A DNA stretch of 54,338 nucleotides, from contig CAZDTP010000023.1 in the NCBI GenBank assembly GCA_964508365.1, forward strand, positions 1-54,338, written 5' to 3'. Positions 18,518-21,760 of this stretch are shown here, one piece after another. The notes beneath the pieces were generated by a model. It saw nothing but the letters and a program-made list of their open reading frames with translations, did no database searches and had not been told where the DNA came from. Origin of the DNA: an uncultured archaeon (GTDB lineage: Archaea > Asgardarchaeota > Lokiarchaeia > Sigyniarchaeales > SOKP01). Position 1 is the stretch's first letter, and each line of letters begins with the position of its first letter. Position numbers and translations under genes: made by a program.

Positions 18518-19207
18518 TTGGTTTCGAAGGAATATAAGAAGATAGAGAGAGTCGTTAGTTTTATGAAAAAGGGTTTAACCTCTTTAAGCGACGACTTGGA
18601 AGAGACGGTTAAAGGGATTAATGATTTTAAAAAATCGTTAACCAAAGCCTTGAAAGATTTGAAAGATGTTTCTATTGAACCAGAATTAAAAACTGTTAGT
18701 ACATCCTCTAAGAAAATTGTAGCACCTGCGGATGAAACCGCTAAAACTGCAGCAGCGAGCACTTTATTTACTTTATTAAGTAGTAGCCCTGCTCCAGCAC
18801 AAGAAGTACCTACAGCTACCACAGCTGCAGCATCACCAACTGTAGGTGGCCCTCCTAAAGCTCCTGGAATTGGCCCTCCACAAAGACCTGCAACAGGAGT
18901 ACCTCCAAAAGCACCCACTACAGGTGGGCCACCTAAAAGATCTAATTTACCTCCAGCGCCAAAATTACCCCCTAGTTCAGATGGTAAGCCCCCTAAAGCT
19001 CCCAGTTCAGGAGTTGTGCAAGCACCGGCATTTGCTAAGAGACCAACACCCCCAGCAGCGCCAATGACGGGTATTCCAGCCAGACCACCTGGAGTTCCAG
19101 TAGTTTCCCCTGCACCAGCGCCTCAAGCAGGAGGTGGTTTAGGTTCTCTCCGAGATGAAATGTTAGAGGAATTAAATCGTCTAAAGAAGATTATGAGAGG
19201 AGATTAG
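18518..19207 (+). CDS. Coiled-coil / proline-rich protein with C-terminal WH2-like motif
   Basis: GGAGG RBS then TTG; N-terminal ~55-aa amphipathic helix; repeated GxPPK[AR]P motifs; C-terminus GGGLGSLRDEMLEELNRLKKIMRGD. Confidence 0.8.
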   Translation: MVSKEYKKIERVVSFMKKGLTSLSDDLEETVKGINDFKKSLTKALKDLKDVSIEPELKTVSTSSKKIVAPADETAKTAAASTLFTLLSSSPAPAQEVPTATTAAASPTVGGPPKAPGIGPPQRPATGVPPKAPTTGGPPKRSNLPPAPKLPPSSDGKPPKAPSSGVVQAPAFAKRPTPPAAPMTGIPARPPGVPVVSPAPAPQAGGGLGSLRDEMLEELNRLKKIMRGD

Positions 19208-19337: not shown

Positions 19338-20084
19338 ATGGACATAAACAATTCTATCATCTGCGAAAACGATATACCAATCGTCGTCCCTAAACGCATA
19401 ATGGTGCTTGCTGGTCATCCAGATGACGAAATAATATCTTGTGGTGGCACTCTTCTGAAATATCAGTCCTTAGGATCAAAAATAATCGTTATAGTTGCGA
19501 CAAGTGGTGTTGGTGGCTATGCCAGAACTAATCAAAAAGAAGGAATTATGAATCAAAGAAAACACGAGCTTGATTCAGTTCGATCATCGTTGAAGTGTGA
19601 AATTATCGAATTAGAATTTCCTGAAATGGACATAACCCGAGAAAAAATCTCTAAAATAACAAATCTTATTAGGGATATTAAACCTCAAGTTATATTATTG
19701 CCTCATCATTCTGATTTTCATCGAGTGCATAGAAATTTATCCCTAATTTCAAGAGAAGCTATTTATCATTGTTCAACAGGCAAAGCTTATGGGGGTTACG
19801 AAAGAAACTGGATTCCATTAGGAGTGTATTATTACGAATCTCCTTCATGTAAATTCGAATATATTGATAGTTCTGCTTTTATTATAGTAGATATTGAAGA
19901 GTATTGGGATAAGAAAAAAGAAATATTCAATATGGCTTACTTATCTCAGAAAGAAGTTTTAGAGAGAGTTATAGAATGGGCGGAAGATACTGCAATTTTA
20001 AGAGGAAATGAAATAAATTCGTCATATGGAGAAGCTTATGTTTTAGAAACTACTTATACTCCACTTAAACTTTTATTAGTATAG
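19338..20084 (+). CDS. PIG-L/LmbE-family N-acetyl deacetylase
   Basis: AGHPDDEIISCGGTL, VATSG, IRDIKPQVILLPHHSDFHRVH and C-terminal RG...YGEAY. Confidence 0.88.
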   Translation: MDINNSIICENDIPIVVPKRIMVLAGHPDDEIISCGGTLLKYQSLGSKIIVIVATSGVGGYARTNQKEGIMNQRKHELDSVRSSLKCEIIELEFPEMDITREKISKITNLIRDIKPQVILLPHHSDFHRVHRNLSLISREAIYHCSTGKAYGGYERNWIPLGVYYYESPSCKFEYIDSSAFIIVDIEEYWDKKKEIFNMAYLSQKEVLERVIEWAEDTAILRGNEINSSYGEAYVLETTYTPLKLLLV

Positions 20085-20139: not shown

Positions 20140-21264
20140 ATGGGTATTATGGGCAATCTTACTGTTGTTTTAGATATAGGGCAGTTTTCCGCAAAAGCGG
20201 GTTTCGCTGGCGAAGATATGCCCAGTCAAGTATTCTTTACGATTGTAGGAAAGCCTAAATATAGACAAATTGATTACGAGTATGGTAGTGTTCGACAGGA
20301 CGACTATTACGTAGGAGATGAGATTCAATCCATAGGTTTATACAAATTGTTTTACCCTATTGATAAGGGCATAATACAGGACTGGGTCTCCTTCGAAAAA
20401 ATAATTGATTATATTTTCTATAATTTAAGAGTTGATTCTAGTTTAGTTAATATTTTATTCGCTGTCCATCCATTGTTTCCTCGTAATGATTTAAAAAAGT
20501 TATTTGAATTATTTTTAGAGCATTATCAATGCAATGCATTTTATCCAGTATTAGATTCTATGCTTACTTTATATGCTGGAGGATTTCAAACAGGCTTGAT
20601 AGTAGAGATAGGAGATAGTCTAACAAGAATAGTCCCAATTTATCAAGGATATAAACTTGATCATGCAATCAGAATTCTTGAAATTGGTGGAAGAAGCTTA
20701 ACAAGGTTTATGGAAAAAATATTAGGTGAAAAAGGGTATTCAACAGATTCTTCAATAAGAAGAGAGCTCGTTAGAGCCTTAAAGGAAAAAGCATGTTTTG
20801 TTTCCCTCGATTACAAAGAAGATTTGAAGAGAGTTGAACAATATGAAAAAGAATATTCATTACCCGATGGCTCTACGATTTCTTTAGCTAGAGAGAGATT
20901 CGAAGTTCCGGAATTGTTATTCAATCCCTCAATGGAATTAGAGGAAGATTCTCTCCCAGAAGCAATTATAGATGTAATTGAAATGTGTGACCTAGATATC
21001 CGTCCGGATTTATTAAACAACATTTTTTTATCAGGAGGGTCTTCGATGTTTCCTAATCTCAAATCTCGAATCTATCAAGAATTAGAAATAGAATTAGCGC
21101 GGCGTAAGAAGAAAAATCAAATTATTAAAATAATAGCACCCCGGGAACGGATTTTCTCAGTTTGGGTTGGAGGATCGATTTTAGCAATGATTCCCGAATT
21201 CGAGCAGAATTGGATAACCAGAGCGAAATATTTTAAAGAGGGTTTCCCAGAGAACCTTTTATAA
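20140..21264 (+). CDS. Actin-family protein (Asgard actin-related protein)
   Basis: Colinear with actin: VVLDIG..SAKAGFAGED.P, YVGDEIQS, YPI.KG.I.DW, IVPIYQGY, LKEKACFVSLDY, YSLPDG, ERFEVPELLFNP, CDLDIRPDL, LSGGSSMFP, IIAPRER.FSVWVGGSILA. Confidence 0.96.
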   Translation: MGIMGNLTVVLDIGQFSAKAGFAGEDMPSQVFFTIVGKPKYRQIDYEYGSVRQDDYYVGDEIQSIGLYKLFYPIDKGIIQDWVSFEKIIDYIFYNLRVDSSLVNILFAVHPLFPRNDLKKLFELFLEHYQCNAFYPVLDSMLTLYAGGFQTGLIVEIGDSLTRIVPIYQGYKLDHAIRILEIGGRSLTRFMEKILGEKGYSTDSSIRRELVRALKEKACFVSLDYKEDLKRVEQYEKEYSLPDGSTISLARERFEVPELLFNPSMELEEDSLPEAIIDVIEMCDLDIRPDLLNNIFLSGGSSMFPNLKSRIYQELEIELARRKKKNQIIKIIAPRERIFSVWVGGSILAMIPEFEQNWITRAKYFKEGFPENLL

Positions 21265-21394: not shown

Positions 21395-21760
21395 ATGCAA
21401 GAACCTCATAATACTAGTTTTGAACAAAGTAAAATTTTAAAGAAATATTACAAACCGGATTACTCTCAATTGTTCAACAAGATAAAAGACATCAAAACTC
21501 CTGTAAAAAATGAAATTTTAATGTCCTTACTTGATGGGAATTGGCATACTGAATTAGATTTGATAAGAGTAGCTAAACAAAAAATGCAATATATGGGTGC
21601 AGTAACCTTAGGGACAATGATTCACTCTTTAAATCACCACCTAAAGAACGATTATGTTGAAAAGAGAGAGATAAACGGAAAACTGTCTTACAGAATCTCA
21701 GATAATTATGTCGGTCTTACTCGAGCGGCATACAACAAATATAGGTTTAAAATGGACTAA
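21395..21760 (+). CDS. Hypothetical protein, probable winged helix-turn-helix
   Basis: GGAGG RBS; ILMSLLDG...TELDL helices and a wing-like YVEKREINGKLSYRIS. Confidence 0.65.
   Translation: MQEPHNTSFEQSKILKKYYKPDYSQLFNKIKDIKTPVKNEILMSLLDGNWHTELDLIRVAKQKMQYMGAVTLGTMIHSLNHHLKNDYVEKREINGKLSYRISDNYVGLTRAAYNKYRFKMD

Follow-up and report, generated by a model that had tools for sequence, protein, structure and literature searches.

A lineage-restricted actin-related protein of Lokiarchaeia with a remodelled nucleotide site and a conserved proline-rich gene neighbour

This study deals with an actin-related protein (ARP) encoded at positions 20140-21264 of the forward strand in a window of 54,338 nt, the whole stretch of contig CAZDTP010000023.1 that was analysed, from an uncultured archaeon of the Lokiarchaeia; all coordinates refer to this window. 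Judged by its sequence, the ARP is a separate, lineage-restricted actin paralogue and not the main Lokiactin. The residues that serve ATP hydrolysis and phosphate release in actin are replaced in it, and the replacing residues are almost invariant in the family of the source genome. On balance, and with moderate confidence, we read the ARP as a nucleotide-holding actin-related protein whose hydrolysis has been lost or slowed, which would be static or controlled by a partner and is perhaps paired with the protein encoded upstream of it; its probable role is that of a cytoskeletal helper and not that of the main filament. An initial annotation, made from the letters of the DNA alone, had proposed a possible pseudo-ATPase. 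This proposal is plausible but unproven, as the replaced hydrolysis and phosphate-release residues speak for it, and the intact adenosine pocket and the conservation of Gln15 and Arg163 throughout the clade speak against it.

Fold and nucleotide site

The protein belongs to the actin family according to a full-length profile match, a four-subdomain fold and the residues that bind adenosine. The Pfam Actin profile (PF00022) was matched with 300 bits, the cut-off being 27, over residues 8-368 (profile positions 6-401), and solved actins were matched with HMMER at approximately 1e-89, the best of them being an entry titled 'HC1 actin'. A single-sequence run of AlphaFold2 (AF2) gave an unusable model with a predicted local distance difference test score (pLDDT) of 33 and was replaced by a model based on an alignment of 88 rows, which reached a pLDDT of 93.6 and a predicted template modelling score (pTM) of 0.91 and is uncertain only at the D-loop and the first residues. 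The best Foldseek matches were conventional actins, with template modelling (TM) scores of 0.88-0.92 and an identity of about 42% across some 368 columns. Thus, the ARP is actin-sized, shows the complete four-subdomain actin fold and is free of the large insertions typical of many eukaryotic ARPs. Its true start may be the ATG at 20149, which would give 371 aa as in the orthologues, because these begin at the second Met (MGNL...) of the open frame.

The nucleotide site was read from alignments made with HMMER to solved actins and with MAFFT to a fungal actin, which carries the muscle-actin numbering, and to the genome's own Lokiactin. HMMER, MAFFT and the AF2 model alike placed DIGQF at the P1 loop of actin. 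Both alignments bear out what the initial annotation had aligned by hand, namely the P1 loop DIGQF, the exchange of the catalytic Q137 for Asp, the P2 loop EIGDS and the exchanges of H161 for Arg and of H73 for Lys (Table 1). To these can be added the exchanges of A108 for His, N111 for Phe and R177 for Ile, the loss of the C-terminal HRKCF of actin as seen in the MAFFT alignment, and a basic insertion of 4 aa. R177 is, together with H73, A108 and N111, part of the network that controls the flipping of H161 and the exit of phosphate. The signature of a hydrolysis-competent actin is absent from the ARP, which is without equivalents of Q137 and H161 and without the canonical residues S/T14, G15, D154 and G158.

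In the following, f1 denotes the family of the source genome and f3 its sister family in the same order of Lokiarchaeia. Among the 117 full-length f1 orthologues, Arg163 and Ser160 occur in all 117, Asp139 and Glu156 in 116 each, Phe16 in 115 and Gln15 in 113. With 122 f1 sequences, the P1 loop carries the Gln in 117/122 and the Phe in 119/122, and f3 has Gln or Glu and Phe or Tyr at these places. Because they are almost invariant in f1, the alignments indicate that these odd residues are selected and are not the product of decay, chance or sequencing error. The position of Q137 is occupied by Asp, by Glu in one f1 genus and by Gly, preceded by Arg, in three of the four f3 orthologues, and the f3 orthologues also have Ala or Ser for D157 and Ser or Ala for G158. 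A common catalytic acid thus does not appear to be required across the clade, because f3 has Gly at Q137 and Ala or Ser at D157. Arg163, Gln/Glu15 and Phe/Tyr16 persist throughout f1 and f3. Gln at the position of S14 was found in none (0/49) of the representatives of single-domain actin-family clusters.

The contacts to adenosine and ribose (K18, R210, K213, E214, G301, G302, S/T303, M305 and F306) are kept in f1 and f3, as are the loop glycines G13 and G156; D157 is kept in f1. Nucleotide binding is likely retained because the adenosine pocket is intact. Mutation of Q137 or H161 in Arp2/Arp3 abolishes hydrolysis and leaves nucleation in place, and ParM mutated at the position corresponding to Q137 forms polymers without ATPase activity (PMC3587832). 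In actin itself, Q137A results in a low ATPase activity, and A108 governs the flipping of H161 (PMC10062479). The Q137A/H161A mutants of Arp2/Arp3, in which assembly activity is kept after the loss of hydrolysis, are our working model for the natural substitutions of the ARP, with the difference that wild-type Arp2 and Arp3 keep Q137 and H161 and that the ARP has no insertions of the Arp2/3 type.

Paralogues, distribution and interaction surfaces

The source genome, with 4.07 Mb on 149 contigs, contains seven actin-family matches: two Lokiactin-like genes, a 373-aa paralogue, a 508-aa form with a zinc-ribbon insert, a very divergent 394-aa form, the ARP, and a C-terminal fragment at a contig end. 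Both Lokiactin-like genes show the canonical DNGTG, Q, DIGDG and H. The sequence identity is 42% between the ARP and Lokiactin and 41% between the ARP and actin, compared with 59% between Lokiactin and actin. In an exhaustive search, the ARP family formed a single cluster at 50% identity (645 bits), and the next single-domain matches were actin-like at about 44% and 297 bits. As a check, the initial annotation had proposed a tree with Lokiactin and other Asgard ARPs. We used a quick, unrooted maximum-likelihood tree with branch support from the Shimodaira-Hasegawa approximate likelihood-ratio test (SH-aLRT), in which the named eukaryotic rows are actins and one centractin, so that the eukaryotic comparison is limited to these. 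The ARP clade (10 rows) is monophyletic with an SH-aLRT support of 100 and stands apart on a stem of 0.84 substitutions per site, and a split with a support of 98 separates the ARP clade, the Lokiactins, the zinc-ribbon ARPs and other Asgard-labelled proteins from the named eukaryotic actins and the centractin. With canonical Lokiactin copies elsewhere in the genome and a clade of its own, the gene is, as initially supposed, an ARP-like paralogue and not the main Lokiactin. A Lokiactin would group with the Lokiactins, share about 80% identity or more among Lokiarchaeia and be present in all Asgard classes; the ARP has the low identity given above, a separate clade, and a range of two families only.

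Two further observations concern the other paralogues. The two Lokiactin-like genes of the source genome (L001, G000:C22:34567-35673, and L002/L007, at the end of G000:C60 and on C103) differ in that one is near-identical to the Lokiactin of other genomes and is truncated at the end of a contig (branch 0.0) and the other is diverged (branch 0.21). An actin paralogue of about 500-550 aa (L005, region of G000:C1:16187-17176; L033-L037), in which a cysteine-rich insert precedes the last strand, is conserved across genomes of f1 and f3; it makes up a separate clade with a support of 100.

A total of 399 Asgard genomes was searched for the ARP, and a best match of about 1e-110 or better was taken as an orthologue, a cut-off set by eye against the cross-matches of Lokiactin at about 1e-95. 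Orthologues were present in 116 of the 134 f1 genomes with 61-97% identity to the ARP, and in 12 of the 13 f3 genomes with 49-58% identity (48-49% for the orthologue at G138:C1:456405-457499, apparently from 'Ca. L. ossiferum'). The other Asgard families among the 399 genomes yielded no orthologue, only cross-matches at the level of Lokiactin (about 45%). A presence in Thor-, Heimdall-, Odin-, Hermod- and Hodarchaeota, as suggested by NCBI labels, was rejected, since the search based on GTDB finds two families of one order; the conflicting NCBI organism labels are probably the bin names of the submitters.

The ARP is under strong purifying selection, with a ratio of nonsynonymous to synonymous substitution rates (dN/dS) of 0.07 within the genus and of 0.046 between two genomes of another genus. 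Its tip branches measure 0.1-0.4, compared with about 0.02 for Lokiactin, which makes it about ten times faster-evolving; across the same genomes, Lokiactin retains 77-82% identity even with the diverged copy as query. That the gene is a decaying copy or an artefact of annotation finds no support apart from the lost canonical residues, and this explanation has practically no probability left: an intact frame in more than 120 genomes, a dN/dS of 0.05-0.07 and the high-confidence fold exclude a pseudogene, a mis-called frame and an artefact alike. Compared with Lokiactin ('asgardactin 01'), the ARP has the same fold, length and adenosine pocket, a D-loop that is likewise longer than that of eukaryotic actin, and an occurrence in the same genomes; it differs in that S14, G15, Q137, D154, G158, H161, H73, A108, N111 and R177 are all replaced, in its faster evolution, in its limitation to two families and in the missing C-terminal HRKCF.

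The surfaces with which the ARP would contact Lokiactin, namely the D-loop, the barbed-end cleft and the C-terminus, have diverged from those of Lokiactin. At the barbed-end cleft, 11/23 positions are identical between the ARP and Lokiactin, as against 21/23 between Lokiactin and actin, and the C-terminal residues that close the cleft binding the D-loop are missing. The D-loop had initially been described as unrelated in sequence to that of actin, which holds, and as about 2 aa longer, which does not: it was measured to be 3 aa longer than in actin and 1 aa longer than in Lokiactin. Within f1, 173 of 366 positions of the whole ARP (47%) are conserved to at least 95%; the corresponding numbers are 13/23 for the cleft, 2/15 for the D-loop, 4/13 for the hydrophobic plug and 6/19 for the lateral contacts. 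The cleft is thus somewhat better conserved than the ARP overall, and the D-loop, plug and lateral contacts are less so. This pattern, as far as conservation can tell, does not fit a conserved polymer of the F-actin type or a snug seat on the ends of Lokiactin, and it would be compatible with a partner bound at the cleft of the ARP. The proposal, also made initially, that the ARP caps or nucleates Lokiactin filaments is not supported.

The proline-rich protein and the gene neighbourhood

The ARP gene is part of a one-strand order that consists of the genes for a 229-aa proline-rich protein, a PIG-L deacetylase, the ARP and a 121-aa protein (Table 1). Both gene places are listed for about 90 f1 genomes, and in all of these except five the proline-rich gene is found 0.13-6 kb upstream of the ARP gene, on the strand of the latter; in the five exceptions the two genes are on separate contigs. 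Related genomes are not independent and the linkage is to be counted as genera, of which it spans all thirteen in f1. The PIG-L gene stands between the pair in the source genus and some others (loci L012, L014 and L011). Genus g12 lacks it at this place, and the two genes of the pair directly adjoin each other there, about 0.2 kb apart. The link between the two is a conserved gene pair in one family, nothing more. Seven f1 genomes (G232, G239, G254, G257, G153, G197 and G222), which are 88-95% complete, have neither the ARP nor the proline-rich gene; this could reflect a shared loss of the pair, or proline repeats that hamper assembly.

Table 1. Features of the window around the actin-related protein gene
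Feature	Position	Strand	Description
Proline-rich protein gene, 229 aa	18518..19207	+	Helical N-terminal domain, polyproline middle, invariant C-terminal helix (tail 19139-19204)
PIG-L/LmbE-type deacetylase gene	19338..20084	+	Pfam PF02585, E 2.4e-20; between the proline-rich gene and the ARP gene
Actin-related protein gene	20140..21264	+	Open frame, 374 aa; Pfam Actin, E 2.7e-89
P1 phosphate loop DIGQFSAK (actin DNGSGMCK)	20173..20196	+	N12 to I, S14 to Q, G15 to F; D11, G13 and K18 kept
D-loop region	20254..20316	+	Longer than in actin; pLDDT about 60; 2/15 positions conserved to at least 95% in the family
PIDKG, H73 equivalent Lys (K76)	20356..20370	+	K in 104/122 f1; variable in f3
AVHPLFP (actin TEAPLNP)	20461..20481	+	A108 to H, N111 to F; Pro-rich loop governing H161 flipping and the phosphate back door
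VLDSML, catalytic Q137 equivalent Asp139	20548..20565	+	D in 120/122 f1; Gly in 3/4 f3
P2 phosphate loop EIGDSLTR (actin DSGDGVTH)	20605..20628	+	D154 to E156, G158 to S160, H161 to R163; R invariant in f1 and f3
Adenosine motif LSGGSSMFP (actin LSGGTTMYP)	21028..21054	+	Retained; G301 and G302 invariant in f1 and f3
Basic 4-aa insertion ELARRKKKNQ (ARRKKK)	21091..21120	+	Near actin residue 320, relative to actin and Lokiactin; in f1 and f3
121-aa protein gene	21395..21760	+	Syntenic in 6 f1 loci; ArsR-like winged helix by atlas cluster name only
Topoisomerase IA-like protein, 728 aa	21782-23968	-	C-terminal zinc ribbons; convergent to the ARP cluster; syntenic in five loci
Multi-PAS histidine kinase, 1073 aa	24166-27387	-	Opposite strand, beyond the ARP cluster

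The proline-rich protein, of which the source genome holds no paralogue, is composed of a conserved helical N-terminal part of about 95 aa, a polyproline middle of variable length (about 31% Pro) and a C-terminal 20-mer, L-S/G-S-L-R-D-E-M-L-E/D-E-L-N-R-L-K-K-I-M-R-G-D/E, which 118 of 120 homologues share with no or hardly any change. It matches no Pfam family, the tail being without a Pfam match at E up to 5 and the N-terminal domain showing only weak matches of the coiled-coil type. The tail is not a WH2 motif by the profile PF02205, to which it has no match, nor by its spacing, since two residues stand between the helix and LKKI and WH2 motifs have four to five residues between the helix and LKKV. 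Co-folding of the ARP with residues 185-229 of the proline-rich protein gave an ipSAE interface score of 0.00 with an uncertain fold of the partner, which is evidence neither way. The 121-aa protein reaches an atlas feature score of 0.97 to a cluster named 'putative HTH arsR-type', which is possibly its own cluster, and has no Pfam match.

Functional readings and related systems

According to our preferred reading, the ARP would still bind nucleotide, as a stable cofactor, and hydrolysis and phosphate release, the clock of filament turnover in actin, would be slow or absent, so that the protein would not be a treadmilling polymer but an actin-fold module that is static or under the control of a partner. 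More weakly, we infer that the f1 protein works with the upstream protein, which combines a helical head, a polyproline arm and an amphipathic C-terminal helix; the invariant tail helix may dock on the conserved barbed-end cleft of the ARP. A comparable combination is known from the nuclear ARPs, which are static partner-binding modules with degenerate catalytic residues and to which a partner protein often binds through one of its helices. Arp4 and Arp8 hold ATP without turnover, and Arp7/Arp9 lack nucleotide. Nuclear ARPs, however, have large insertions and belong to chromatin remodellers, whereas the archaeal protein described here has the size of actin and is linked to a polyproline protein.

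Several points weigh against the reading as a nucleotide-holding protein with lost or slowed hydrolysis and a partner upstream. The near-invariant residues D139, Q15, F16, S160 and R163 of f1 would also fit an altered but active site, ParM, MreB and Hsp70 use an acidic residue at the place of Q137 as their catalytic base, and the sequence is compatible both with Q15 or F16 blocking the gamma-phosphate and with their binding it. The proline-rich family also occurs in f4, f6, f7, f19 and f27, families without the ARP, and in f3 the proline-rich gene lies 44-270 kb from the ARP gene; the ARP therefore cannot be its sole partner. In addition, co-immunoprecipitation of Lokiactin from 'Ca. L. ossiferum' enriched profilin, gelsolins, an ARF GTPase and BAR proteins, with no ARP named (PMC13716822).

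The points concerning the active site lead to the alternative that the ARP is an active ATPase with rewired catalysis, in which Asp139 would act as the base, Arg163 at the transition state and Gln15 on the water, and which would form dynamic filaments of its own as a second actin cytoskeleton. We regard this as unlikely. Besides the near-invariance of the replaced residues in f1 and the catalytic use of an acidic residue at this position in ParM, MreB and Hsp70, the conservation of Q15 and R163 in both f1 and f3, the intact adenosine pocket and the actin-like architecture with a TM score of 0.9 and no insertions of the ARP type speak for it. However, three of the four f3 orthologues have Gly in place of the proposed base, one f1 genus has Glu there, and f3 carries Ala or Ser for D157; the D-loop, plug and lateral contacts, which are among the least conserved parts, and the missing residues that close the cleft for the D-loop further speak against filaments of its own. 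A second alternative, a nucleotide-free structural ARP like yeast Arp7/Arp9, whose cleft would be filled or locked by Q15, F16 and a D139-R163 pair and which would be a binding platform only, appears improbable. Of about eight positions that contact phosphate or take part in catalysis, five are altered, among them a bulky Phe at G15 and a Gln at S14 that is unique compared with the 49 cluster representatives, but the strict conservation of K18, K213, E214, G301, G302, M305 and F306 in f1 and f3 is hard to explain without an adenosine nucleotide.

A non-cytoskeletal role like that of the nuclear ARPs, as a subunit of a DNA- or transcription-linked complex, is suggested by the downstream genes: the 121-aa gene, ArsR-like by its cluster name, is syntenic in six f1 loci, and the topoisomerase-like gene of type IA, next on the opposite strand, in five. 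We consider such a role very improbable, as the winged-helix call is an automatic cluster name without a Pfam match behind it, the topoisomerase gene is convergent and not co-oriented, and the tighter and wider linkage is to the proline-rich protein. A bolder extension of our preferred reading is that the ATP-holding, hydrolysis-dead ARP and the protein with polyproline arm and tail helix together form a primitive module for nucleating or anchoring Lokiactin filaments, in which the arm would bring in profilin-Lokiactin and the invariant helix would sit in the cleft of the ARP. We regard this extension as quite doubtful; if true, the module would correspond functionally to the pairing of nucleation-promoting factor and ARP, in an archaeal form that arose inside the Lokiarchaeia.

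With regard to published data, Asgard archaea possess several actin paralogues beside Lokiactin, and such ARPs are already known as a kind, without an assigned role. The clades asgardactin 02/03 of Da Cunha et al. are found in Lokiarchaeota only, similar to the restriction of the ARP clade to Lokiarchaeia, and probably include the ARP family. The sister family f3 appears to include 'Ca. L. ossiferum', in which a Lokiactin filament has been seen (PMC9834061), and its orthologue is very probably one of the three published 'ARPs' of this organism that Rodrigues-Oliveira et al. placed outside Lokiactin (PMC9834061). The accessible parts of the published work on Asgard ARPs contain trees and relative expression only, with no nucleotide-site changes and no gene neighbourhood, and a literature search yielded no paper describing the nucleotide-site changes or the gene pair of the ARP clade. 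What is added here is the variation in the sister family, the counts of distribution and linkage, and the figures for evolutionary rate and dN/dS. The result is not a large surprise, as active-site decay of this kind is also seen in eukaryotic ARPs and the family is contained in published trees. Nevertheless, the ARP clade provides testable ideas on how actin-fold helpers arose before or beside eukaryotes, and the apparent orthologue in a cultured organism makes experiments feasible.

ARPC4 (PF05856) had no match in the source genome, but none in any control genome either, which makes this search uninformative, and the Pfam profilin model gave only a sub-threshold match in the source genome, Asgard profilins being known to be divergent. 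A scan for sigma-70 promoters and terminators did not exceed shuffled sequences and is not meaningful for an archaeon. In one metatranscriptomic run, for which DNA carry-over is possible, parts of the proline-rich gene, the ARP gene and the 121-aa gene are matched by contigs that are 95-99% alike; the run holds 8% of the sampled words, and gene parts that are not covered are uninformative. In 'Ca. L. ossiferum', the ARPs are transcribed severalfold below Lokiactin (Rodrigues-Oliveira et al., PMC9834061).

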